IMG/VR virus record: IMGVR_UViG_2636415418_000006
Coordinates: 1-10,715 of that record
Origin: a virus
Lineage: Duplodnaviria > Heunggongvirae > Uroviricota > Caudoviricetes
Strand: one strand, 5' to 3'
Length of the DNA stretch: 10,715 bases
Both the position numbers and the translations under genes were made by a program. Position 1 is the first letter of the stretch; every line of letters starts with the position of its first letter. The notes under the pieces are model-generated. The model had not been told where the DNA came from, did not search any database, and saw only the letters and a list, made by a program, of their open reading frames with translations. This document shows, one piece after another, positions 1-10,715 of the stretch.

Positions 1-633
1 TTATATTAATTCGTATAATTTGGCGTAGTCGATAAGCTCTACAATTGAATGCAAACCTAGCTTGCCATAAATATTAGATTTATGCGCACTAACTGTTTTA
101 TTGCTAAGTAATAACTTATCGGCAATTTCTTTATTAGATAATCCGCTAACCAGATAACGTAATATGGTCACTTCACGATTAGATAGCACAGTGATCGTTG
201 AACTATTCGTACTACATTTATTGCTTTTTATATAGTTAAGCGTTTCGCTAGGAAAAAACGTGTATCCGGAGAGGATCATCTGAACGGCATGAAAAATATC
301 ATTCTGATCATTGCATTTACTGACAAAACCGTTAGCACCAGCTTGTATCGCTCTGCCAGCATAAAAGCATTCTGATTTCGATGATAAAAATAACACTTTC
401 ACTGTGCTCTGGATTTGTTTGATCCTTTTCAGGAAGGTAAAACCGTCTGTTCCGGGCAAGTCTATATCCATAATGATTAAATCAACAGGACGGGTTCGGA
501 GATAATCGATGGTTATGCGGTAATCATCCGTTTTCAGGACAATCTGCAATTCACTGTTTTTTTGCAACAGAACTTCAATAGACATTCTGATGATAGGATG
601 AGTATCCATAATGATCACCGACGTTGGTTTCAT
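1..633 (-). CDS. fimZ: LuxR/NarL-family two-component response regulator FimZ (receiver domain plus C-terminal HTH)
   Basis: The minus-strand ORF 1..696 translates to a protein that matches, from MKPTSVIIMDTHPIIR onward, my recollection of E. coli FimZ (210 aa). The ATG at 631-633 gives exactly 210 codons; the ORF-track start at 696 is probably an upstream in-frame ATG. The stop codon sits at 1-3. Confidence 0.88.
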   Translation of the reverse strand: MKPTSVIIMDTHPIIRMSIEVLLQKNSELQIVLKTDDYRITIDYLRTRPVDLIIMDIDLPGTDGFTFLKRIKQIQSTVKVLFLSSKSECFYAGRAIQAGANGFVSKCNDQNDIFHAVQMILSGYTFFPSETLNYIKSNKCSTNSSTITVLSNREVTILRYLVSGLSNKEIADKLLLSNKTVSAHKSNIYGKLGLHSIVELIDYAKLYELI

Positions 634-816
634 AGTTACCAGTCTCATAGGAGCGGACAATTTTCCGTTAGGGCGGTAAATTGTACTTTGATACATGAAA
701 ATACGGGTTTTCTTGATTCAGACGCGCAGCGGTGTGCGTTTGTTTGCCACTATAGCGAAATAAATCAGAAAATCAGACGCGGTCGTTCACTTGTTCAGCA
801 ACCAGATCAAAAGCCA

Positions 817-844
817 TTGACTCAGCAAGGGTTGACCGTATAAT
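817..844 (+). promoter_or_regulatory. Sigma70 promoter for argU tRNA: -35 TTGACT (817-822), 16-nt spacer, -10 TATAAT (839-844), GC-rich discriminator
   Basis: Both hexamers match consensus exactly, with a 16-bp spacer, and sit about 30 nt upstream of the mature tRNA 5' end. The GC-rich discriminator tcacgcg after the -10 is typical of stringently controlled tRNA promoters. Confidence 0.65.
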
Positions 845-875
845 TCACGCGATTACACCGCATTGCGGTATCAAC

Positions 876-952
876 GCGCCCTTAGCTCAGTTGGATAGAG
901 CAACGACCTTCTAAGTCGTGGGCCGCAGGTTCGAATCCTGCAGGGCGCGCCA
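876..952 (+). tRNA. argU: tRNA-Arg (anticodon UCU, 910-912), 77 nt with encoded CCA; attachment site of the prophage
   Basis: The sequence folds as a cloverleaf: acceptor stem GCGCCCT/AGGGCGC, D-arm, anticodon stem CGAC/GTCG with loop CTTCTAA, T-arm GCAGG-TTCGAAT-CCTGC, discriminator G and CCA at 950-952. It matches my recollection of E. coli argU, the known DLP12 integration site. Confidence 0.92.
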
Positions 953-967
953 TTACAATTCAATCAG

Positions 968-1360
968 TTACGCCTTCTTTATATCCTCCATAATTCCAGA
1001 GTGGGACATATTTGGGACATTATCACCAAAAATGTCGTCTATTTTCCTCGCATGCTCTGTCAAATGATTAGGCGCAAGGTGAGCATACCTACGAACCATT
1101 TCTATGGACTCCCATCCGCCCATTTCCTGAAGCACTGATAATGGGACGCCTGACTGAATCAGCCAGCTTGCCCAGGTGTGTCTGAGGTCATGGAAACGGA
1201 AATCTTCAATTCCTGCACGACGACAAGCTGATAGCCATGATGTCTTGCTGTCGATGCGCATCTTCCTGACCGCAGGCGTTGATGTTCCATCTGCTCGCTT
1301 AGCCGCCTTGGTATGTACAAACACCCATTTGTGATGCTTGCCTATTTGATCACGCAACAC
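968..1360 (-). pseudogene. intD: Tyrosine integrase, C-terminal catalytic fragment only (about 130 aa; N-terminal two thirds deleted)
   Basis: The ORF carries the integrase catalytic signatures HDLRHT (His-x-x-Arg box) and RRYAHL (catalytic Tyr region). It ends 16 nt from the tRNA 3' end, as expected for a tRNA-targeting integrase. A full-length integrase would be about 390 aa, but the 5'-truncated exo fragment sits directly upstream, so the N-terminus and xis are gone. The intD symbol is by position and analogy to K-12. Confidence 0.75.
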
Positions 1361-1397
1361 TTTACAGGCGGTACCCGGATATTATCGTGAGGATGCG

Positions 1398-1934
1398 TCA
1401 TCGCCATTGCTCCCCAAATACAAAACCAATTTCAGCCAGTGCCTCGTCCATTTTTTCGATGAACTCCGGCACCATCTCGTCAAAACTCGCCATGTACTTT
1501 TCATTCCGCTCAATCACGACATAATGCAGGCCTTCACGCTTCATGCGCGGGTCATAGTTGGCAAAGTACCAGGCATCTTTTCGCGTCACCCACATGCTGT
1601 ACTGCACCTGGGCCATGTAAGCCGATTTTATTGCCTCGAAACCACCGAGCCGGAATTTCATGAAATCCCGGGAGGTAAACGGGCATTTCAGTTCAAGGCC
1701 GTTGCCGTCACTGCATAAACCATCGGGAGAGCAGGCAGTGCGCATATTTTCGTCGCGATAGATGATCGGGGATTCAGTAACATTCACGCCGGAAGTGAAT
1801 TCAAACAGGGTTCTGGCGTCGTTCTCGTACTGTTTTCCCCAGGCCAGCGCCTTAGCATTAACTTCCGGAGCCACACCGGTGCAAACCTCAGCCAGCAGGG
1901 TGTGGAAGCCACGGTGCAATCTGGAATAACCCAC
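1398..1934 (-). pseudogene. exo: Lambda-type exonuclease (Exo/YqaJ family), 5'-truncated: the C-terminal ~170 aa are conserved and the native stop is retained
   Basis: From [37 protein letters not shown] to the terminal GFVFGEQWR the translation is near-identical to lambda Exo as I recall it. The first ~55 lambda codons are missing, and the ORF-track N-terminus MGYSRLHRG is non-homologous junction sequence. Homology begins near position 1907. Confidence 0.8.
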
Positions 1935-2254
1935 CGTACAGCAATATCAGGCCGTGGGTGGAAAAAGCCGCTGAGCAGTGCATACAACAGCGACAGACGG
2001 TAGTTATGCTTGTGCCAGAGGATATGTCAGTCGGATGGTTCAGCAAGGCTCTGGAGAGTGTCGACGAAGTTCGCATTATCACTGATGGACGGATTAATTT
2101 TATCGAACCATCGACAGGGCTGGAGAAGAAGGGAAACAGCAAAGGCTCCATGCTGCTGATTTGGCGACCGTTCATCAGTCCTCGACGGATGTTTACTACC
2201 GTATCCAAAGCGGCATTGATGGCGTTCGGGCAGGGCGTCAGGAGGGCGGCATGA
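1922..2254 (+). pseudogene. Phage DNA N6-adenine methyltransferase-like fragment (5'-truncated; begins at the NPPY catalytic motif)
   Basis: The frame containing ORF 1958..2254 stays open upstream to 1862 and encodes W-N-N-P-P-Y-S at 1922-1942, the [DNS]PP[YFW] motif IV of amino-methyltransferases. This is followed by VVMLVPEDMSVGWF and [11 protein letters not shown], which resemble the conserved C-terminal blocks of phage Dam-type enzymes. Sequence upstream of the motif is antisense exo, so the gene is cut at a deletion junction. The stop overlaps the ninE start in an ATGA arrangement (2251-2254). Confidence 0.4.
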
Positions 2255-2427
2255 GGCGACAGCGACGAAGTTTCACCGACATCATCTGCGAAAACTGCAA
2301 ATACCTTCCAACGAAACGCTCCAGAAATAAACGCAAGCCAATCCCAAAAGAATCTGACGTAAAAACCTTCAATTACACAGCTCACCTGTGGGATATCCGG
2401 TGGCTAAGATATCGTGCGAGGAAATGA
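2251..2427 (+). CDS. ninE: NinE family protein (58 aa)
   Basis: [58 protein letters not shown] matches lambda/DLP12 NinE as I recall it. A GGAGGG Shine-Dalgarno lies at 2241-2246. The ORF-track entry 2161..2427 is the same frame extended upstream. Confidence 0.85.
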
Positions 2428-2771
2428 CAATGGATTATTCACAGTTAAGTGATTTTGAAATTAACAGAATGGTAGGAGACATAATTTTTAAAGGCCTTTG
2501 GGCAAGTAAACCGGAAACATCAGGGAATAACACCAACAAATGGTATTACGGAAATGCTGATACAACTTTTGAGCCATTAAATCATTTGCCTGACTACTGC
2601 AATGATCCGAGCGCTTCATGGCCGATTATTGAGAAATACAGGATTTCTATCTTAGACCAGTTAACTGAATGGTGTGTGGATGCAAAAGGCGTAAGCCCAA
2701 TATTTGATACCAGACCTCTCCGCGCCGCCATGATTGTCTTTCTCCTGATGCAGGAGGCCAATAATGCTTAG
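2424..2771 (+). CDS. Hypothetical nin-region phage protein (115 aa; possibly DUF2591/NinX-like)
   Basis: The ATG at 2424 overlaps the ninE stop (ATGA) and is preceded by a GAGGAA Shine-Dalgarno at 2417-2422, which suggests translational coupling. It has an acidic, Trp/Tyr-rich globular sequence. The family assignment is a weak recollection only. Confidence 0.6.
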
Positions 2772-2981
2772 CCCATCTCAATCCCTTCAATACCTGAAAG
2801 GAAGCATAGAGCGGGCTTCAATGTGCACAGAGTGGATTCTATCTAGGTTTAGCGCATACAGAAGATTGCCGGTAAAGGGCATGCCAAGCAAGTCGATGCT
2901 GCATATGCAAAAGAATGCGCGTTGGAAGGTATGGCGAGAACGCAGGTTATCTGGCTGAAAGAGGGGGTAATTAAGGCGTGA
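2764..2981 (+). pseudogene. Chimeric remnant: ninF-like 5' end (about 20 codons) fused out of frame to the 3' end of a ybcO-like (DUF1364) gene
   Basis: Frame 1 starts [18 protein letters not shown], which matches the lambda NinF N-terminus as I recall it, and then diverges. Frame 3 from about 2853 encodes [38 protein letters not shown], which resembles the YbcO C-terminus and ends in a GTGA overlap with the rusA start. Neither part has a complete reading frame. Confidence 0.45.
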
Positions 2982-3340
2982 ATACTTACCACATCACACT
3001 ACCCTGGCCGCCGAGCAATAACCGCTACTACCGCCATAATCGAGGGCGCACGCACGTCAGCGCAGAGGGGCAGGCATACCGCGATAACGTCGCCCGAATC
3101 ATTAAAAACGCAATGCTGGATATCGGCCTGGCTATGCCTGTGAAAATCCGCATTGAGTGCCACATGCCGGATCGCCGTCGCCGTGACCTGGATAATCTGC
3201 AAAAAGCCGCTTTTGACGCACTCACTAAAGCAGGTTTCTGGCTGGATGATGCTCAGGTCGTTGATTACCGCGTTGTGAAGATGCCTGTTACCAAAGGTGG
3301 GAGGCTGGAACTGACCATCACCGAAATGGGGAATGAATGA
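2978..3340 (+). CDS. rusA: Holliday-junction resolvase RusA (120 aa), GTG start
   Basis: The translation [44 protein letters not shown]...[11 protein letters not shown] is essentially identical to E. coli RusA as I recall it, full length. Confidence 0.9.
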
Positions 3341-3477
3341 TGTTTGAGTTTAATATGGCAGAACTTCTTCGCCACCGCTGGGGGCGTCTGCGCTTATATC
3401 GTTCCCCCGGTTCTGTTTTGACCGATTACCGAATACTGAAGAATTACGCCAAAACCCTGACAGGAGCAGGAGTATGA
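3337..3477 (+). CDS. ylcG: Small protein YlcG (46 aa), absent from the supplied ORF track
   Basis: The ATG at 3337 overlaps the rusA stop (ATGA). The translation [46 protein letters not shown] matches my recollection of DLP12 YlcG, and the gene sits in the same place as in K-12, between rusA and quuD. Confidence 0.6.
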
Positions 3478-3562
3478 AGTCAGAGATAACAATCAACTAA
3501 TACTGTTTTGTTGATTTTTGCTTGTAATTGGCGTTCTGGCCTGATTTTTGTGGAGTAAGTTG

Positions 3563-3946
3563 ATGCGTGATATTCAGATGGTTCTTGAGCGTTGGGGAGC
3601 GTGGGCGGCTAATAATCATGAAGATGTGACCTGGTCGTCCATTGCCGCCGGTTTTAAGGGATTAATTACTTCAAAAGTAAAATCTCGCCCGCAATGTTGT
3701 GACGATGACGCGATGATTATTTGCGGGTGCATGGCCCGTCTGAAAAAGAACAACAGCGATTTGCACGATTTATTAGTAGATTATTATGTAGTCGGTATGA
3801 CATTCATGTCACTGGCAGGTAAGCATTGCTGCTCTGATGGTTATATCGGGAAAAGGTTACAGAAGGCTGAGGGCATAATTGAAGGGATGTTAATGGCATT
3901 AGATATCCGGTTAGAGATGGATATCGTTGTTAATAACTCTAATTAA
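3563..3946 (+). CDS. quuD: Late-gene antitermination protein Q homolog (127 aa)
   Basis: [34 protein letters not shown]...DIVVNNSN matches DLP12 QuuD as I recall it. A GGAG Shine-Dalgarno lies at 3552-3555. The ORF-track start at 3548 is an upstream TTG in the same frame. Confidence 0.88.
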
Positions 3947-3979
3947 TATGCCAGTTGTTTACTAAAAATTATTAAAAAT

Positions 3980-3997
3980 GGGGCGTTGCAACGCCCC
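3980..3997 (-). terminator. Perfect 18-bp palindrome GGGGCGTTGCAACGCCCC flanked by A/T runs; candidate terminator for nmpC (minus strand), possibly bidirectional
   Basis: The hairpin and its flanks are read directly from the sequence. On the minus strand the stem is followed by ATTTTTAAT. It lies about 140 nt downstream of the nmpC stop. Confidence 0.4.
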
Positions 3998-4085
3998 CAA
4001 AAATAAAGGGTAATATATAACAGAAGGTTTATATAGTTAGAAGCAAGGTTGTGCTCCTAAAGGAAGTGGCTTGAGGGAGCCACTT

Positions 4086-4125
4086 ATATGTTGGGGAGGC
4101 AAAGCCTCCCGCAACATATCTTTTT
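4086..4125 (+). terminator. Rho-independent terminator (about 15-bp stem with one bulge, then CTTTTT); candidate tR'-like terminator of the Q-dependent late leader
   Basis: ATATGTTGGGGAGGC-AAA-GCCTCCCGCAACATAT is followed by TTTTT at 4121-4125, about 180 nt downstream of the quuD stop. This matches the lambda Q / pR' / tR' layout. A second hairpin (AAGTGGCT/AGCCACTT) lies at 4064-4085. Confidence 0.55.
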
Positions 4126-4135
4126 CGTAATCAGA

Positions 4136-5233
4136 TTAGAACTGGTAAACCAGACCTACAGCAACGATGTCATCAGTGCTTACACCGAGTGCTTTAGTGA
4201 AGTCATTTTTGTCAAGCAGGTTGATTTTGTAATCAACGAAAGTAGACATATTTTTGTTGAAGTAATAGGTTGCACCTACATCAACATATTTGACTAAGTC
4301 CTGATCGCCCCATACTCCAAGATCCTTACCTTTAGATTGCAGGTAAGCAACGGACGGACGCAGACCGAAATCGAACTGATATTGTGCAACAGCTTCGAAG
4401 TTTTGAGCTTTATTAGCAACGAAGTGATCAGCAAATACAGTCATATTCTGGGTTTCAGAATAGGTAGTGGCCAGGTAAATGTTGTTAGCGTCATATTTCA
4501 GACCTGCGGCCCAAACTTCTGCATTTTTACCGGAAGCAAATACTTCAGGAAGAACTTTCCCTGCATTAACTTGAGTGTCGGTACGATCAGATTTCGCATA
4601 AGTTGCACCGATACCGAATCCTTCGTATTCATAGGTAGCAGAGAAACCGAAGCCATCACCGTTACCTTCGGTGTAGTTATCGAAATCGCTACGATCGTTT
4701 TTGCCTTGGTACTGAGCAGCAAAGTTCAGACCATCAACCAGACCAAAGAAGTCGTTGTTACGATAAGTTGCAACACCAGTGGTGCGACCAGTCATGAACA
4801 CATCTGTTTGGGTCCAGGTATCGCCACCGAATTCTGGCAGAACGTCAGTCCACGCACCGATGTCGTATGCTACACCGTAGTTACGGCCGTAATCGATGGA
4901 GCCGTAGTCACCGAATTTCAGGCCAGCGAAGGCAAGACGGGTTTTATCTTTGGAGGAACCTTGAGATTCAGCGCGGTTGCCTTTGAATTCATATTCCCAC
5001 TGACCGAAACCAGTCAGTTGATCGTTGATTTGGGTTTCACCTTTGAAGCCAAGACGGGCATAAGTAGTATCACCATCATCTGCATCATTAGAGGAGAAGT
5101 AGTGCTTAGCATTAACTTTCCCGTACAGATCCAGCTTGTTACTGTCTTTATTATAAATTTCAGCTGCCTGAGCAGACATCGCCATCAGTACTGATGCAGC
5201 TACAGCAGAAATTGCCACTGTTAATTTTTTCAT
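4136..5233 (-). CDS. nmpC: General outer-membrane porin of the OmpC/OmpF/NmpC family (365 aa, intact, with signal peptide)
   Basis: The signal peptide [23 protein letters not shown] is followed by AEIYNKD, and the protein ends in the typical porin C-terminal F. It is full length, unlike the IS5-disrupted K-12 nmpC, and sits antisense between Q and the lysis genes exactly as in DLP12. Confidence 0.85.
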
Positions 5234-5806
5234 CGTGAGCCCTTTTTTTTGAACTATTATTAAAAAATGATGTCACTGCGCGATAAATATTCATCTAATC
5301 AATATGATTATTTCAAGATGTAAGTTTTGGTTTCTCGTTTGATTTGTGAAGTAGATCTCTATTTTTATCTGAACTTTTTTCTATCGAATCCTATTCATGG
5401 CTCTTGGCTGAATAAAAATAAATCTATTAGCCAATTTATATTAACGGTTGTTATTTATAAGTGCTCTATGATTTGAAGGTTCAATTTAAATCGGCTAAAA
5501 ATAACACTGGGAATTATTTGTTGGTTATTTGTTGAGATTTGCTTATGTATTTGTAGTGGTGTTTTCAATACTCGGTAGCATTCTCGCAAATATCATTTAG
5601 TGGTTTACGTACGTAAAAAATTGGTTATGCTGTTAAGAGTGGTTACTTCGTCACACAGCTTAAACCCGCCGTCGAGTGGGTTTTTCCATTTTTTGAGTCT
5701 CGATATTAGCTGATAACCCAATACCTGAGTTATTCACTGACTCCGAGTCTGTTACGTTTCGTAGTATTCCCTCAATTTACACCCGCTTTGTCTGCGAGGT
5801 GGGGTT

Positions 5807-5905
5807 ATGAAATCCATGGATAAGTTAACAACGGGTGTCGCCTATGGCACCTCAGCAGGTAGTGCCGGGTATCTGCATCATCGTCTGCCTGTCATGGGCT
5901 GTTAA
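5807..5905 (+). pseudogene. essD: Class I holin (lambda S / EssD-like), N-terminal 22 codons only, then frameshifted into Rz sequence
   Basis: [22 protein letters not shown] matches the EssD/lambda S N-terminus as I recall it. After that the frame reads [10 protein letters not shown] and stops, because the DNA from about 5873 is Rz coding sequence in another frame. Confidence 0.7.
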
Positions 5906-6293
5906 TCATTACCGTGATAACGCAATCGCCTACAAAGAGCAGCGCGATAACAAGGCCAGTGAACTGGAGAAGGCGAACGCCACCATCGCTGACATGCGGA
6001 AGCGTCAACGTGATGTAGCAGAACTCGACGCAAGATACACAAAGGAGCTTGCTGATGCTAACGCGACTATCGAAAGTCTCCGTGCTGATGTTTCTGCTGG
6101 GCGTAAGCGCCTGCAAGTCGCCGCCACCTGTGCAAAGTCAACGACCGGAGCCAGCGGCATGGGCGATGGAGAAAGCCCAGGACTTACAGCAGATGCTGAA
6201 CTCAATTATTACCGTCTCCGAAGTGGAATCGACAAGATAACCGCGCAGGTTAACTACCTGCAGGAATACATCAGGACGCAATGCCTGAAATAA
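5844..6293 (+). CDS. rzpD: Inner-membrane spanin subunit Rz (i-spanin) with a chimeric N-terminus; transmembrane helix [11 protein letters not shown] retained
   Basis: From [26 protein letters not shown] to the C-terminal QCLK the protein aligns with lambda Rz as I recall it. The first ~12 codons (MAPQQVVPG) come from holin DNA read in the Rz frame. The start at ATG 5844 (or GTG 5835) is uncertain. Confidence 0.7.
6055..6240 (+). CDS. rzoD: Outer-membrane lipoprotein spanin Rz1 (o-spanin), embedded in the +1 frame of Rz
   Basis: An AAGGAG Shine-Dalgarno at 6041-6046 lies 8 nt before the ATG. The protein has a lipoprotein signal peptide with lipobox GVSAC, a proline-rich mature part ([14 protein letters not shown]) and lies wholly inside Rz. 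This is the classic embedded spanin arrangement. Confidence 0.75.
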
Positions 6294-6324
6294 TTTTTTT
6301 GCTAATCACAAAGTCCATTTAATG

Positions 6325-6349
6325 AGCCTCGCGATGCGGGGCTTTTTTT
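6325..6349 (+). terminator. Rho-independent terminator after Rz/Rz1 (8-bp stem AGCCTCGC/GCGGGGCT, loop GAT, seven T)
   Basis: Hairpin plus T-run are read directly, 32 nt downstream of the Rz stop. Confidence 0.6.
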
Positions 6350-6498
6350 ACATCTGAATTTCACAGCGCATCTCACGCGCATATTACATCACCCGAGCCT
6401 TTCAGAAAGTTGAGCCTGAGAACTGCCGTATATGGTGGCGACCATCTCGGGGCGGCTTTTCTGTGAGACAGGCTCACTTTCTAAAAGGTAAAGACGCT

Positions 6499-6987
6499 AT
6501 GAACCAATTAGAAGAAAAGCTTCAAAGAATGATTTCCTTATACAAGGAAGATAACTGCCAAAAAGTTCCTGAAAACATCGCAGAGTTAATGGAATTGGCA
6601 AGTGAATTTTCTGGCATGCTTAAGTCGTCAGGTGTTCGGTCAGCGTTCTTTGTTGAAATGCTGATGCACGGCGGACTTATGGCAACAATGAGACGTGTAA
6701 TGGAAGACCAGAGAAAAGAACCTCCTCAGGTATACGTTTTGTCATCGAAGAAAACTGGGCTAACCAAAATTGGGTATTCATCCAACATTCCACAACGCAT
6801 CAAATCGCTTGGCAACTCTGGACCAGACTGCTTGAAGCTTGAGTGCCTGATCCCTGGTGGAAGAGAAACTGAAAACATGCTTCATCGCAAATTTGCCGCA
6901 AAGAGAAAGCACGGTGAATGGTTCGCCCTGTCCAAGGATGACATTGAGGGATTGAAATCTGTAGCGATTACTTCTGATGGCTATTAA
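6499..6987 (+). CDS. T5orf172 (GIY-YIG-like) domain protein of 162 aa: helical N-terminal region of unknown function plus C-terminal T5orf172 domain; moron in the slot occupied by bor in lambda
   Basis: The C-terminal half (VYVLSSKKTGLTKIGYSSNIPQRIKSLGNSGPDCLKLECLIPGGRETENMLHRKFAAKRKHGEWFALS) follows the T5orf172/MUG113 pattern (hydrophobic-Y-V-L ... KIGyT ... R ... E ... LH ... GEWF). An AAGG Shine-Dalgarno precedes ATG 6499. The DNA is unrelated to lambda at this position. Confidence 0.7.
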   Translation: MNQLEEKLQRMISLYKEDNCQKVPENIAELMELASEFSGMLKSSGVRSAFFVEMLMHGGLMATMRRVMEDQRKEPPQVYVLSSKKTGLTKIGYSSNIPQRIKSLGNSGPDCLKLECLIPGGRETENMLHRKFAAKRKHGEWFALSKDDIEGLKSVAITSDGY

Positions 6988-7026
6988 TGCTTGTTTAGAG
7001 CAATTTTCATAACAACTCTTCATTAC

Positions 7027-7056
7027 AAAGCCCATCTACTGGTGGGCTTGATAATG
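7027..7056 (+). repeat. Hairpin AAGCCCA-(8 nt)-TGGGCTT followed by GATAATG; copy 1 of a repeated stem-loop motif
   Basis: Read directly from the sequence, 40 nt downstream of the T5orf172 stop. No T-run follows the stem. Confidence 0.4.
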
Positions 7057-7301
7057 AAACCGTGATTTACATCCCCACAATCCGGGTATGTAAAAGATAG
7101 TTCAGGCGAGAACGGATTTAACTAAATCTGTGCGCCACCAGTTAACGGCAGTACCACGAAACAACCCAAGCCAGTAAGTGGGGAAATAACACCGGCAGCC
7201 ACTGAAAGATGAACCTCCTGCCTTATGGCAAAAAAGATTCTTTGTGGTGGCGGACTGATGGAAAGACATCCTAATTTCAGCCAAACATTGAAGGAGTTGT
7301 T

Positions 7302-7373
7302 ATGTCAGCAGAAGGTTTCAATAACCCATCAAAATTCCGGGATGAGTGGGATAGCAGCGTAAAGAGTAAGTGA
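7302..7373 (+). CDS. Candidate small ORF (23 aa, MSAEGFNNPSKFRDEWDSSVKSK) with a strong Shine-Dalgarno
   Basis: A consensus AAGGAG at 7291-7296 lies 5 nt upstream of the ATG. There is no homology evidence, and the ORF is bracketed by the two repeated hairpins. Confidence 0.2.
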   Translation: MSAEGFNNPSKFRDEWDSSVKSK

Positions 7374-7383
7374 TGCCATCACA

Positions 7384-7417
7384 AAAGCCATTCCCTACAG
7401 AGTGGCTTTGATAATGG
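7384..7417 (+). repeat. Hairpin AAAGCCA-(12 nt)-TGGCTTT followed by GATAATGG; copy 2 of the repeated stem-loop motif
   Basis: It has the same architecture and the same 3' flank (GGCTT(T)GATAATG) as the hairpin at 7027-7056. Confidence 0.4.
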
Positions 7418-7665
7418 CTTATACCCTACACGGGATAACTTAACTGATATCCCTTTTAAAGGATAAAGGTATTCAAGCCTGACACATCATGCGCTGTATC
7501 GTCGCCGTATTCCAGTATTAACAGAGACCGTAGCCCGACGGGGAACTCCTTCTGCGCGAGTGTGCGGGAATAATCAAAAACGATGCACACCGGGGTTACC
7601 GGGTACACATATTTCATCATGCCAGCGAGTCCGGTTCTGGCACGGAAGAAACCGGACGTTATGAT

Positions 7666-8076
7666 TTAGTGCGGAAATATTTGTGTAGTGTTCTGAATGT
7701 TCTCAGTAAAGAGTAATGAATTATCAAAGGTATAGTAATACCTTTTGTTTTCGTGGATATTTGTAATCCATCTGAAAACCCCTGCTGTAGCAAGATTTTT
7801 CCTGTATTCGTAAAATGATAACTCTCCTGATTTGAATCCTTTTAATGTGGCTTCTATAAGGCATTTATTTTTTGAAAATCTTACATTTACAACCTTACCC
7901 TGTCCTTTTATTAAAACCGTATTATCGTTTTCAAGAACAAGATGAATATTCTCTGTGGCTAAATAGTAAATGTAATGTGAGACATTGTGACGTTTTAGTT
8001 CAGAATAAAACCAGTGATAGTTTAAATTATTTCGCACTTTATCGAATATTTGTTTAAAAATGGCAACCTGAGCCAT
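7666..8076 (-). CDS. ybcV: DUF1398-family prophage protein (YbcV-like, 136 aa)
   Basis: [17 protein letters not shown]...[24 protein letters not shown] resembles DLP12 YbcV and the equivalent lambda right-end ORF as I recall them. A GGAAGG Shine-Dalgarno precedes ATG 8076. The gene is AT-rich. Confidence 0.7.
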
Positions 8077-8133
8077 TGTAGTACCTTCCATGTGATATGA
8101 GGGTACCTAGTCTGCACGATTATCTAAATTGCT

Positions 8134-8367
8134 TCAATCTGGTCTGACCTGCTTTCTGAGCAATTCAGTAATGTCACTCTTTTCTTTGTTTGCTTCAGGC
8201 GAAACTCTTTTTTCTGAGCACAGTCTTCGGCGGCAGGCTTCAATGACCCAGGCTGAGAAGTTCCCAGACCCTTTTTGATCAAGAGCGATGTTAATTTGTT
8301 CAATCATTTGGTTAGGAAAGCGGATGTTGCGGGTTGTTGTTCTGCGGGTTCTGTTCTTCGTTGACAT
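8134..8367 (-). CDS. ylcI: Small ribbon-helix-helix-like DNA-binding protein (YlcI/DUF3950-like, 77 aa)
   Basis: The N-terminus MSTKNRTRRTTTRNIRFPNQMIEQINIALDQKGSGNFSAWVIEACRRRL has an Arg-rich beta-strand followed by helices, as in RHH proteins. Its position just upstream of cos matches DLP12 and lambda. Confidence 0.65.
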   Translation of the reverse strand: MSTKNRTRRTTTRNIRFPNQMIEQINIALDQKGSGNFSAWVIEACRRRLCSEKRVSPEANKEKSDITELLRKQVRPD

Positions 8368-8544
8368 GAGGTTGTCCCGTATTCAGTGTCGCTGATTTGT
8401 ATTGTCTGAAGTTGTTTTTACGTTAAGTTGATGCAGATCAATTAATATGATACCTGCGTCATAATTGATTATTTGACGTGGTTTGATGGCGTAGATGCAC
8501 GTTGTGACATGCAGATGATAATTATTATCATTTTGCGGGTCCTT

Positions 8545-8755
8545 TCCGGCGATCCGACAGGTTACGGGGCGGCGACCTCGCGGGTTTTTGCTATTTATGA
8601 AAATTTTCCGGTTTAAGGTGTTTCCGTTCTTCTTCGTCGTAACTTAATGTTTTTATTTAAAATACCCCCTGAAAAGAAAGGAAACGACAGGTGCTGAAAA
8701 CGAGCTTTTGGGCCTTTGTCGTTTCCTTTCTCTGTTTTTGGCCGTGGAATGAACA
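8545..8755 (+). other. Complete lambda-type cos site: cosQ side, cosN (12-nt cohesive end GGGCGGCGACCT at 8567-8578) and cosB up to the Nu1 start
   Basis: GATCCGACAGGTTACG|GGGCGGCGACCTCGCGGGTTTT...GAAAGGAAACGACAGGTGCTGAAA... is almost base-for-base the joined right and left ends of phage lambda as I recall them. Confidence 0.85.
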
Positions 8756-8944
8756 ATGGAAGTCAACAAAAAGCAGCTGGCTGACATTTTCGGTGCGAGT
8801 ATCCGTACCATTCAGAACTGGCAGGAACAGGGAATGCCCGTTCTGCGAGGCGGTGGCAAGGGTAATGAGGTGCTTTATGACTCTGCCGCCGTCATAAAAT
8901 GGTATGCCGAAATCTGGCGGATCCGGCGCGTGAGTTCACCATGA
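8756..8944 (+). pseudogene. nohD: Terminase small subunit Nu1, N-terminal 52 codons only (DNA-binding region), then junction
   Basis: MEVNKKQLADIFGASIRTIQNWQEQGMPVLRGGGKGNEVLYDSAAVIKWYAE is identical to lambda Nu1 residues 1-52. Homology stops at 8911, and the frame then reads IWRIRRVSSP and a stop. Confidence 0.85.
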
Positions 8945-9009
8945 TTCAGTCAGCACCGCTGATGCTGCTGGCTGACCCTGATGAGTTCGTGTCCGTACAA
9001 CTGGCGTAA
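8912..9009 (+). pseudogene. Major capsid protein E, last ~30 codons only
   Basis: A different frame ending at TAA 9007-9009 encodes ...REFTMIQSAPLMLLADPDEFVSVQLA, which matches the lambda gpE C-terminus as I recall it. It is joined directly to Nu1 codon 52, which implies deletion of Nu1 3', A, W, B, C, Nu3, D and most of E. Confidence 0.6.
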
Positions 9010-9011
9010 TC

Positions 9012-9036
9012 ATGGCCCTTCGGGGCCATTGTTTCT
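9012..9036 (+). terminator. Stable hairpin ATGGCCC-TTCG-GGGCCAT followed by a U-rich tract, between the E stop and FI
   Basis: A 7-bp GC-rich stem with a UUCG tetraloop, read directly. It is followed by TGTTTCTCTGTGG. Confidence 0.45.
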
Positions 9037-9050
9037 CTGTGGAGGAGTCC

Positions 9051-9449
9051 ATGACGAAAGATGAACTGATTGCCCGTCTCCGCTCGCTGGGTGAACAACT
9101 GAACCGTGATGTCAGCCTGACGGGGACGAAAGAAGAACTGGCGCTCCGTGTGGCAGAGCTGGAAGAGGAGCTTGATGACACGGATGAAACTGCCGGTCAG
9201 GACACCCCTCTCAGCCGGGAAAATGTGCTGACCGGACATGAAAATGAGGTGGGATCAGCGCAGCCGGATACCGTGATTCTGGATACGTCTGAACTGGTCA
9301 CGGTCGTGGCACTGGTGAAGCTGCATACTGATGCACTTCACGCCACGCGGGATGAACCTGTGGCATTTGTGCTGCCGGGAACGGCGTTTCGTGTCTCTGC
9401 CGGTGTGGCAGCCGAAATGACAGAGCGCGGCCTGGCCAGAATGCAATAA
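9051..9449 (+). CDS. FI: Lambda DNA-packaging/head-assembly protein FI (132 aa)
   Basis: MTKDELIARLRSLGEQLNRDVSLTGTKEELALRVAELEEELDDTDETAGQ...MTERGLARMQ is near-identical to lambda gpFI as I recall it. A GGAGG Shine-Dalgarno lies at 9041-9045. Confidence 0.88.
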   Translation: MTKDELIARLRSLGEQLNRDVSLTGTKEELALRVAELEEELDDTDETAGQDTPLSRENVLTGHENEVGSAQPDTVILDTSELVTVVALVKLHTDALHATRDEPVAFVLPGTAFRVSAGVAAEMTERGLARMQ

Positions 9450-9460
9450 CGGGAGGCGCT

Positions 9461-9814
9461 GTGGCTGATTTCGATAACCTGTTCGATGCTGCCATTGCCT
9501 GCGCCGATGAAACGATACGCGGGTACATGGGAACGTCAGCCACCATGACATCCGGTGAGCAGTCCGGTGCTGTGATACGTGGTGTTTTTGATGACCCTGA
9601 AAATATCAGCTATGCCGGACAGGGCGTGCGCGTTGAAGGCTCCAGCCCGTCCCTGTTTGTCCGGACTGATGATGTGCGGCAGCTGCGGCGCGGCGACACG
9701 CTGACCATCGGTGAGGAAAACTTCTGGATAGACCGGATTTCGCCGGATGATGGCGGAAGCTGTCATCTCTGGCTTGGGCGGGGCGTACCGCCTGCCGTTA
9801 ACCGTCGCCGCTGA
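9461..9814 (+). CDS. FII: Lambda head-tail joining protein FII (117 aa), GTG start
   Basis: MADFDNLFDAAIACADETIRGYMGTSATMTSGEQSGAVIRGVF...GRGVPPAVNRRR is near-identical to lambda gpFII as I recall it. A GGGAGG Shine-Dalgarno lies at 9451-9456. Confidence 0.88.
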   Translation: MADFDNLFDAAIACADETIRGYMGTSATMTSGEQSGAVIRGVFDDPENISYAGQGVRVEGSSPSLFVRTDDVRQLRRGDTLTIGEENFWIDRISPDDGGSCHLWLGRGVPPAVNRRR

Positions 9815-10715
9815 AAGGGGGATGTATGGCCATAAAAGGTCTTGAGCAGGCCGTTGAAAACCTCAGCCGTATCAGCAGAACGGCGGTGCCCGGTGCCGCC
9901 GCAATGGCCATTATCCTCGGTGGTTTGTTCTCCTTGTCGCAGAGCGCCGTGTCCTCACCGGCTTCCGGGAAATCCACATCTTTTTTGATTTCGCCACGCC
10001 CGCCCACCATGGTGGCAAACTCCATTAATACCGGACCGGCGGGAAACAGAAGCGATGCGCCGGCGCTGACGAGATCCATAAAACCGGCATTGCTTTCCGT
10101 CAGGGTGATAACAGCGTTCCCCCAGGCCTTCGCCAGTGGTACTGCTTTTTCCGCTGCCGATTCAAGCAGGTCAGTGGCAATATCACCCCATGAGGGTTCC
10201 CCCTGTGGGATTTCAGGTATTGCTCCAGGTGGGGGAGGAGGGGGAAGGGTGACGGCGGCCCTTGCAGCGGGCTTTCCGTTAATGTTTACATTTTCAGAAC
10301 CGGTATTGATGGCGCCGTCCGTGTCACAAAAGCTGTTTATCCATGATTCAAGCTGGTTCTGTTTCTCCTCCACATAATCACTCGCCTTATAGCTGGCATA
10401 CATCAGCGCAGGCACCAGAACCAGCGCATAAGGGCCGGTGGCGCAGGCGGCCATAATCAGGCAACCTTCTGCGATGGTCACTATCGCCCCCAGCACGGCC
10501 CCTGCCAGTGCCCCCAGAAAACTTTTATGCTGAATTTCATCGCCCAGCCTGGCGGCAGGTGGGCCGGACTTCTTTGCTGCCAGCATCTGTGCAATGGCTT
10601 TGTCGTTGGCTGCCCGTTTCATCTGGCTGGCGACCATCGCCTGCTGTGACAGCATTCGCATTGCCAGCGTACCGCCTGCGGTCGCTCCCTGTGGCCCGCC
10701 TGGTCCTTCACTCAT
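9798..10715 (-). CDS. Hypothetical membrane protein with a prePAAR-like motif (AARLGDEIQH), a two-helix hydrophobic hairpin, a PAAR-like motif (NVNINGKPAAR) and a poly-proline linker; candidate T6SS-type effector N-terminal module whose 3' end runs into antisense lambda DNA
   Basis: The long minus-strand ORF is GC-rich with E. coli-like codon usage. Residues 51-60 fit AARxxDxxxH, residues about 66-108 are hydrophobic (FLGALAGAVLGAIVTIAEGCLIMAACATGPYALVLVPALMY), and residues about 141-149 are GSENVNINGKPAAR followed by PPPPPP. The last ~40 codons (position 9912 and below) are antisense to lambda Z and FII, so the native C-terminus is missing. The start may be an internal ATG (10584-10586, MLAAKKSGPPAAR...). 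Confidence 0.5.
   Translation of the reverse strand: MSEGPGGPQGATAGGTLAMRMLSQQAMVASQMKRAANDKAIAQMLAAKKSGPPAARLGDEIQHKSFLGALAGAVLGAIVTIAEGCLIMAACATGPYALVLVPALMYASYKASDYVEEKQNQLESWINSFCDTDGAINTGSENVNINGKPAARAAVTLPPPPPPGAIPEIPQGEPSWGDIATDLLESAAEKAVPLAKAWGNAVITLTESNAGFMDLVSAGASLLFPAGPVLMEFATMVGGRGEIKKDVDFPEAGEDTALCDKENKPPRIMAIAAAPGTAVLLIRLRFSTACSRPFMAIHPPFSGDG
9826..9912 (+). pseudogene. Tail protein Z, first 29 codons only
   Basis: MAIKGLEQAVENLSRISRTAVPGAAAMAI matches the lambda gpZ N-terminus, after which the frame diverges into sequence that is antisense to the minus-strand gene. The remaining ~150 aa of the ORF-track entry 9826..10377 are not Z. Confidence 0.75.

Follow-up and report, generated by a model that had tools for sequence, protein, structure and literature searches.

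Two look-alike hairpins, hairpin 1 (7019-7058) and hairpin 2 (7375-7418), lie on the plus strand of a 10,715-nt stretch of viral DNA (Caudoviricetes; positions 1 to 10,715 of IMG/VR record IMGVR_UViG_2636415418_000006; hereafter, at its full length, the window). Here we describe these hairpins, the segment between them and the family to which they belong, and we conclude with high confidence that its members are conserved sense-strand RNA hairpins at cassette boundaries. Sited at argU, the window is a lambdoid prophage that resembles DLP12 and has degraded; it is 100% identical to the DLP12-like cryptic prophage of Escherichia coli W21, beside fimZ and a tRNA-Arg gene. In plus-strand order, its left part holds the nin region, Q (quuD) and a porin gene in reverse orientation. 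The region around the hairpins holds the following features:

5844-6293, plus strand: Rz-like gene in a truncated lysis cassette
6499-6987, plus strand: gene for a GIY-YIG/T5orf172 protein, the accessory gene of a variable 'slot 1' (RefSeq annotation; Pfam T5orf172/MUG113)
7019-7058, plus strand: hairpin 1 (52.5 bits with the covariance model described below)
7070-7130, plus strand: optional 61-nt indel segment, present in 19 of 127 loci, with a small hairpin at 7066-7094
7131-7270, plus strand: noncoding core
7271-7377, plus strand: variable 'slot 2'
7375-7418, plus strand: hairpin 2 (58.7 bits with the same model)
7410-7467, plus strand: conserved tail past hairpin 2, present in 81 of 127 loci
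7666-8076, reverse-oriented: DUF1398 gene
8134-8367, reverse-oriented: YlcI gene

Packaging and head gene remnants lie to the right of YlcI. Late transcription runs on the plus strand from the lysis genes through interchangeable accessory genes to the packaging genes, and the hairpin region is a lambdoid accessory-gene hot spot, 3' of the lysis genes and 5' of the terminase genes. An earlier note on this DNA, made from the sequence alone, named the upstream neighbor of the hairpins as a T5orf172 gene, and a Pfam match confirms this assignment (PF10544, E 2.8e-10). In relatives, slot 1 is occupied by KilA, Rha, hkbL or other genes.

Hairpin 1 has a 9-bp inner stem (7028-7036/7041-7049, AAGCCCATC/GGTGGGCTT) closed by the loop TACT and an outer stem formed by TTCATTA (7019-7025) and TAATGAA (7052-7058). 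Its internal loop can be drawn either as 2x2 CA/GA or as a C-G pair with two bulged A residues. Homology with other phages on this side begins at 7011-7026. In hairpin 2, a 10-bp inner stem (7384-7393/7400-7409, AAAGCCATTC/GAGTGGCTTT) carries the loop CCTACA and is separated by an internal loop from an outer stem of GCCAT (7375-7379) and ATGGC (7414-7418). The folding energies are -22.2 kcal/mol for hairpin 1 (z -7.4 vs shuffles) and -21.1 kcal/mol for hairpin 2 (z -5.1), so that the folding check proposed in the earlier note finds both to be far more stable than shuffled sequence. That note gave the right 3' ends and the right spacing (356 nt between inner stems) and rightly remarked that neither hairpin has a T-run, which holds for the plus strand. 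Its start coordinates, 7027 and 7384, were 2-3 nt off, the strings that it quoted beginning at 7025 and 7381. The shared 3' flank that it reported, G(G)CTT(T)GATAATG, is real; the stems, which it called the same, are similar and not identical.

To define the family, we scanned viral contigs and one genome per species with a sequence pattern and searched with a covariance model of the hairpins (model R1). In the window, model R1 matches only these two sites. The search for further copies of the motif suggested in the earlier note yielded more than 150 sites elsewhere, showing that the resemblance is not due to chance. The family consensus is CATTAC-A-[AAGCC..TC]-loop-[GA..GGCTT]-G-A-TAATG. Although the left flank CATTACA was outside the first search pattern, it is present in nearly all matches, and CATTACA..GATAATG is common to hairpins in many unrelated flanks. 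Carriers are P22-, HK97- and lambda-like phages and prophages across Enterobacterales, the species scan having matched prophages of Enterobacter, Klebsiella, Kosakonia, Pantoea, Buttiauxella, Phytobacter, E. albertii and others. One further match (locus L147, 4449-4484) is an enterobacterial-type hairpin directly 3' of a Rha-like gene in an assembly labeled Chryseobacterium sp. 18061, which may reflect contamination or mislabeling.

Covariation argues that the paired structure itself is conserved. In an alignment of 73 distinct copies, pairing holds in 96.7% of pair cells, a figure somewhat inflated by the fitting of this alignment to the model, and compensatory double changes occur at 9 of the 16 pairs (128 cells). 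The covariation score of 0.376 compares with values of at most 0.116 for slid partners and was reached in none of 500 shuffles; an independent MAFFT alignment gives the same pairing picture. Examples include the change from AAAGCC/GGCTTT to GAGGCC/GGTCTC, the change from ATTAC/GATAAT to ATTGC/GACAAT in HK620 and P22, which keeps the structure of hairpin 2, and a fully compensated stem in locus L056 (CAGGCATTC/GAGTGCCTG).

The family also has a sense strand. Of the 73 copies, 59 have U·G at pair 17-33 and 51 have U-A at the neighboring pair 18-32; hairpin 1 keeps the U·G pair and lacks the U-A pair. Read from the opposite strand, this wobble would turn into an A·C mismatch. We also compared 109 distinct contexts: in 50 of them, an open reading frame (ORF) of 60 aa or more that is oriented like the hairpin has its end no more than 10 nt upstream of it, and none on the opposite strand stops that close to its other side. 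We infer the strand from the family and not from the energies of the two window copies, which do not discriminate between strands.

The position of the hairpins is equally regular. All copies that we examined are located between lysis and packaging genes of phages or prophages, with one to three matches to model R1 per phage locus, some 190-660 bp apart, and a single match in the whole P22 genome. The hairpin of ~40-45 nt follows each accessory gene or noncoding unit of the hot spot and typically starts 1-15 nt past a stop codon. Upstream genes include Rha, KilA, spanin, Acb2/Tad1-like, DUF2560 and hkbL; the downstream gene, often that of the small terminase or DUF2560, starts 10-60 nt past the hairpin. 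Because the upstream genes vary so much, with at least 45 different upstream flanks preceding the same hairpins, the functional link to the T5orf172 gene suggested in the earlier note does not hold. The possibility it raised of a common chromosomal, REP-like repeat (REP, repetitive extragenic palindromic) is borne out insofar as the repeat is common; the repeat is not REP-like in lacking a positional link, being confined to the lysis-terminase interval. A REP/BIME-like repeat (BIME, bacterial interspersed mosaic element) was also rejected on copy number, with two copies in 10.7 kb, one in P22 and none in DLP12 or Qin of E. coli K-12.

Two loci provide further observations on neighboring genes. 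In L056 (6389-7322), an Acb2/Tad1-like gene (anti-CBASS/anti-Thoeris sponge) stands ahead of the first of three hairpins, the second and third of which enclose a DUF2560 gene; the ~290 nt between the first and second contain no convincing ORF. In P22, the annotated 'orf25' (40329-40406) starts inside the hairpin loop and reads through the 3' arm, and is likely a spurious gene call.

Known elements were considered for the hairpins and their surroundings. An Rfam scan of the whole window at E<=1 matched only the tRNA. The prophage small RNAs (sRNAs) AgvB, AsxR, STnc100 and Esr41, which are Rfam families, have no match here, and the Pas sRNAs are placed between Q and holin, elsewhere than this region. 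A promoter and terminator scan found nothing at either hairpin on either strand. Intrinsic termination was rejected on three grounds: the plus strand has no T-run, the scan was empty, and the minus-strand T-run is also missing in most family members. The 'attenuator-like structures' entertained in the earlier note found no support.

We next turn to the segment that the hairpins bracket. Of 5426 complete E. coli genomes, 2580 have a match to the block 7021-7467, as do 218 records of phages from Salmonella, Escherichia, Shigella, Klebsiella and Enterobacter. These include the P22-like phages HK620, Sf6 and P22 and the HK97-like phages HK544 and HK106, and the position of the block is always between Rz and the packaging genes. 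Its subdivision, as listed above, was based on BLAST breakpoints and alignments. The left boundary, 7011-7026, is the 5' edge of hairpin 1, and the right end of the conserved tail is at 7467. In P22-like and HK97-like phages, the DUF2560 (hkbM/orf80) or HNH gp74 gene has this tail as its 5' leader. Within the tail is a hairpin of weak terminator-like character (7431-7452, GGGATA..TATCCC, followed by TTTT to 7456). Both hairpins lie directly downstream of a variable unit.

Mosaic breakpoints coincide exactly with the hairpins. Among 158 hairpin instances, 45 upstream and 31 downstream flank clusters occur in 64 combinations, and the conserved tail is joined to 15 different upstream flank clusters; in 38 loci the tail occurs without the core. 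Several loci (L068, L011, L032, L047 and others) have one hybrid hairpin, consisting of the hairpin-1 stem and loop followed by the hairpin-2 3' flank and tail, and nothing corresponding to 7050-7410. These hybrid hairpins and the loci without 7050-7410 show that the segment is present or absent as a unit, with a crossover within the shared hairpin sequence. Thus, the hairpins are the exact points at which cassettes such as 7050-7410 are acquired, lost or exchanged, in agreement with the proposal in the earlier note that the hairpins are the ends of a small inserted cassette. Since a ~40-nt sequence recurs between unrelated genes, it provides short homology for recombination.

Within this cassette, the most conserved part is noncoding. 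Positions 7162-7270 (~110 nt) are nearly invariant in 41 distinct homologues, and the adjoining 7131-7161 is variable, half of the sequences having a 1-nt indel there. Two small ORFs, beginning at 7209 and 7225, were rejected as genes, their variants being nonsynonymous, stop or frameshift changes; because variants disrupt both, we regard the core as noncoding. Minus-strand ORFs in the core were rejected likewise, on nonsynonymous, stop and frameshift variants together with 61-nt and 1-nt indels. A long-range pairing between 7133-7141 and 7247-7255 is lost in relatives and was discarded. In P22 (NC_002371), the core lies at 40181-40308, directly after rha. Hairpins bracket the core in ~90% of cases, upstream in 44 of 49 and downstream in 45 of 49, 23 of the latter being 4 nt away. 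The core had no Rfam match in the E<=1 scan and no promoter-like site in the promoter scan. It is a very widespread, highly conserved noncoding segment in classic phages such as P22. One speculative idea, which we think unlikely, is that the core is an unrecognized phage late noncoding RNA, cut out at the flanking hairpins and stabilized by the 3' one. The hairpins would then be maturation signals of an RNA common to P22, HK620, Sf6, HK97-like phages and about half of E. coli genomes.

Slot 2 varies between phages. The window, HK544 and Emek carry a Shine-Dalgarno (SD) sequence and a 23-codon ORF in this slot; Sf6, Huey and phiKp_30 carry a 381-bp Phage_gp49_66 gene; and the slot is empty in HK620, HK106, P22 and Chlobot. 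The coordinates in the earlier note are exact for both AAGGAG (7291-7296) and the ORF (7302-7373), and this SD sequence is a good one, 5 nt from the ATG. Few sequences carry the slot-2 segment, namely 129 of 5426 E. coli genomes and 4 phage records, and almost all copies are identical. That note had asked whether the small ORF is conserved in any relative: relatives do carry it, but only as near-identical copies (HK544, Emek and the 129 E. coli genomes). Emek has only two substitutions within the ORF, both of which are synonymous (TCA to TCC and CGG to AGG). The ORF is without a Pfam match and is not annotated by RefSeq. A micro-gene in slot 2 is plausible on this thin evidence. We also observed an 11-nt perfect complement between 7008-7018, in the 3' untranslated region of the GIY-YIG gene, and 7294-7304, which spans the SD, spacer and ATG of the 23-codon ORF. 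This complementarity probably arose by chance, since slot 2 also occurs with other upstream flanks (as in HK544), where the pairing is not kept.

To the right of the block, a 54-codon minus-strand ORF (7456-7620) lies between hairpin 2 and the DUF1398 gene. It is annotated as a hypothetical protein in Chlobot, is not annotated by RefSeq in E. coli and has no Pfam match. A further block, 7468-7700, is common to 22 of the loci compared. Decay of the prophage is evident in essD, the nohD-like packaging gene and the tail gene, which are truncated pseudogenes (5807-5872, 8756-9009, 9826-9948); an Rhs fragment adjoins the tail gene remnant in the window.

What might such a hairpin do? The 'RNA-processing sites' mentioned in the earlier note are supported as the favored mechanism by a likeness to the RNase III sites of phage T7. 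When model R1 was scanned over the whole T7 genome with filters off, the best plus-strand matches, 36830-36853 and 5861-5884, were the upper stems before genes 18.5 and 1.1. Folding of the T7 intergenic regions before genes 0.3, 0.5, 1, 1.1, 1.3, 4.7 and 18.5 gave a common hairpin, (C)UC-AAGGYC..GRCCUU-UAUGAU, to which hairpin 2 corresponds in the same notation as ACA-AAAGCCAUUC..GAGUGGCUUU-GAUAAUG. In the reverse direction, a model built from the seven T7 hairpins only (model R2) had hairpins 2 and 1, on both strands, as its top four window matches (E 0.02-0.12), and it also matched the hairpin copies of P22, HK620 and Sf6. Of the 16 T7 loci that scored best in plain local alignment, 5 coincide with RNase III sites. 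The model and alignment scans in both directions link the hairpins to the T7 sites R1.1, R18.5, R0.5, R1 and R1.3. It is this reciprocity and ranking, and not the single scores, each of them weak, that carry the weight of the likeness. The T7 sequence records do not include RNase III sites among their annotated features. The most family-like T7 hairpin, at 36830-36853, lies between the small terminase and Rz-like spanin genes, so that the neighborhood of the gene 18.5 hairpin is of the same kind as the hairpin sites of the temperate phages.

Details of the helix can be compared with the known determinants of RNase III reactivity. Hairpin 2 shares 8 of 10 upper-stem pairs with the T7 signal R1.1, including the UA/UG 'distal box'. 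UA and UG pairs in the distal box act as a positive determinant of recognition (Pertzev and Nicholson, 2006; PMC1540722), and the U-A and U·G pairs are present in the family, in hairpin 2 in the same order relative to the loop-closing C-G as in R1.1. From the same study, 11 bp between the loop and the cleavage site suffice for reactivity, and internal loops confine cutting to one strand, leaving a 3' hairpin that protects against exonucleases (PMC1540722). The proximal box of T7-type substrates is G-C, A-U/U-A, A-U, A-U/U-A, and neither G-C nor C-G stands beside the scissile bond. In the R1.1 register that we infer for hairpin 2, the proximal box reads A-U, A-U, A-U, bulge, C-G, of which positions 2 and 3 fit.

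Given this resemblance to T7 RNase III sites, we favor host RNase III processing. The proposal that the hairpins are host RNase III processing or 3'-stabilizer sites that insulate cassettes, with recombination as a by-product, commands about even confidence by analogy with T7, and we would put the identity of RNase III as the acting factor at a similar, evenly balanced level. The hairpin consists of a 9-10-bp upper stem (AAGCC..UC/GA..GGCUU) with U-A and U·G beside the loop-closing pair, and of a 5-7-bp lower stem (AUUA/UAAU), the two stems being separated by a small internal loop or by two bulged A residues. Host RNase III would recognize this structure as it does in the T7 single-cut processing signals and would cut, or possibly only bind, the 3' side near the junction of GGCUUUGAU and AAUG. 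The mRNA of the upstream cassette would then end in a protective 3' hairpin and the downstream message would receive a defined 5' end whatever cassette precedes it. The homology of hairpins between unrelated genes serves recombination as a side effect.

Several observations weigh against RNase III processing. Position 1 of the proximal box is A-U instead of G-C, and the C-G at position 4, between two bulged A residues, resembles an antideterminant: C-G at this position is a catalytic antideterminant, and a bulge-helix-bulge can permit binding without cleavage (PMC1540722). The hairpin may therefore be bound by RNase III rather than cut. The helix, 16-18 bp with bulges, is above the 11-bp minimum and below the ~20-22 bp that are typical. 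Model R2 makes no strand distinction, the cross-model E-values are individually weak (0.02-5), and hairpin 2 is predicted to be slightly more stable on the minus strand than on the plus strand (-24.0 vs -21.1 kcal/mol). The inflation of pairing in the model-fitted alignment belongs here as well. The names and positions that we take to be those of the T7 RNase III sites are corroborated only by gene adjacency and folds; they are said to derive from Dunn and Studier's work of 1983. Confinement of the hairpins to one late-operon region is unexplained by a general punctuation role. Finally, scans found the hairpin absent from the K-12 prophages DLP12 and Qin, so that K-12 RNase III cleavage maps (PMC6212723, PMC5371410) do not bear on it. 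Literature searches on RNase III in lambdoid late transcripts found nothing relevant.

Some of these observations would be accommodated if the hairpin were an RNA site for another factor, such as a phage or host RNA-binding protein, RNase III acting by binding only, a barrier to 3' exonucleases, or a translational insulator that needs no protein. The bulge-helix-bulge and the C-G at the presumed scissile position match the features of binding without cleavage (PMC1540722), the unpaired or flanking ATTACA/GATAATG and the bulged A are conserved, and P22 has an annotated stem-loop after the major capsid gene to which no nuclease is assigned. However, the P22-, HK97- and lambda-like carriers differ in their gene sets, making a common phage factor unlikely, a plain exonuclease barrier needs neither conserved flanks nor a wobble, and the T7 RNase III signals are the only specific similarity that was found. 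We consider this alternative unlikely.

The exchange of cassettes at the hairpins could also be the whole of their function, that is, they could be DNA-level 'boundary' or linker sequences kept by homologous recombination between unrelated modules, with no role for RNA. Mosaic breakpoints at both hairpin edges, the hybrid hairpin-1/hairpin-2 copies and the combination of 45 upstream with 31 downstream flank clusters in 158 instances would all be expected, and the 'bsq' boundary sequences annotated in Sf6 offer a precedent. The original description of 'boundary sequences' is reportedly that in HK620; literature searches on the HK620 sequences returned nothing relevant. A linker, however, needs identity and not pairing, whereas the stem here is kept by compensatory changes, its U·G wobble is retained on one strand only, and the hairpin stands in the sense orientation just past stop codons. 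Moreover, the hairpin sites were not marked as bsq by the Sf6 annotators. On balance, a purely DNA-level role appears improbable.

Much less credible is the proposal that the hairpins act as single-stranded DNA sites of a dedicated cassette-exchange system (attC- or IS200/IS605-like), with the intervening segment mobile. Look-alike hairpins with different loops and bulged bases that bracket units present or absent as a whole, TTAC directly 5' of the stem, and arrays of up to three hairpins 190-660 bp apart are suggestive of such a system. No recombinase or HUH transposase is consistently nearby, though, and the hairpins lack both the attC R-box consensus and IS608-type spacing; their orientation follows gene sense and stop codons, and the conserved pairs are G·U rather than Watson-Crick, favoring RNA.

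Least probable of all, and in our view scarcely tenable, is that the hairpins are intrinsic terminators for minus-strand transcripts of reverse morons (the DUF1398 gene and the 54-codon ORF): UUU(U)GU does follow each stem on the minus strand, hairpin 2 folds there at -24.0 kcal/mol and the window genes downstream of it are on the minus strand, but the terminator scan was empty at both sites, the minus strand of most family members has GGCTTCTGTAATG and no T-run, the neighbors in P22-, HK620-, Sf6- and HK97-like phages are all on the plus strand, the conserved wobble becomes an A·C mismatch, and no ORF on the opposite strand terminates within 10 nt of a hairpin.

If the favored explanation, processing or stabilization by host RNase III, is correct, a portable RNase III-type hairpin caps each interchangeable accessory gene, many of these being anti-defense genes, and the packaging genes downstream gain a context-independent mRNA start. 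Such hairpins would be a natural counterpart of the RNA 'insulators' of synthetic biology, would explain the clean recombination of the hot spot between unrelated phage lineages, and would give annotators a simple marker of cassette boundaries.

Comparison with known systems helps to place the hairpins. Like the bsq of HK620 and Sf6, they are short conserved sequences at transitions between homology and non-homology and proposed foci of recombination; they differ from bsq in being structured, strand-specific and maintained by covariation, and they fall outside the Sf6 bsq annotation. Integron attC sites, which likewise stand at the 3' end of gene cassettes, are also imperfect hairpins whose loops vary and which have bulged bases, but here there is no integron integrase and no RYYYAAC/GTTRRRY core, and the conserved G·U pairs point to RNA. 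In T4-type phages, the small accessory genes of hyperplastic regions are flanked by promoter-early stem-loops (PeSLs), which are repeated regulatory hairpins associated with cassette shuffling. Both PeSLs and moron terminators resemble the present hairpins as repeated hairpins at accessory genes that coincide with cassette shuffling. The hairpins described here belong to a different phage group, have no promoter by our scan and no T-run, and their likely function is predicted to be processing, not termination.

The closest parallel is with the T7 signals R0.3, R0.5, R1, R1.1, R1.3, R4.7 and R18.5. Both sets are intercistronic elements of a long polycistronic phage transcript, and both have a 9-11-bp upper stem that starts with AAG(G/C)YC and ends with GRCUU, then a small internal loop and a lower stem, with the 3' flank U(A)UGAU in T7 and UGAUAAU here; R1.1 and hairpin 2 further share U-A and U·G beside the loop-closing C-G. 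The internal loop is asymmetric in T7, whereas here it is 2x2 or consists of two single-A bulges around a C-G, and the total helix of the present hairpins is shorter. Cleavage is only predicted for the present hairpins, which are confined to one late-operon region of temperate phages and are transcribed by Q-modified host RNA polymerase, in contrast to the T7 RNA polymerase of T7. Overall, the class is best filed as predicted phage intercistronic RNase III-type processing/stabilizer hairpins that also form a mosaic boundary.

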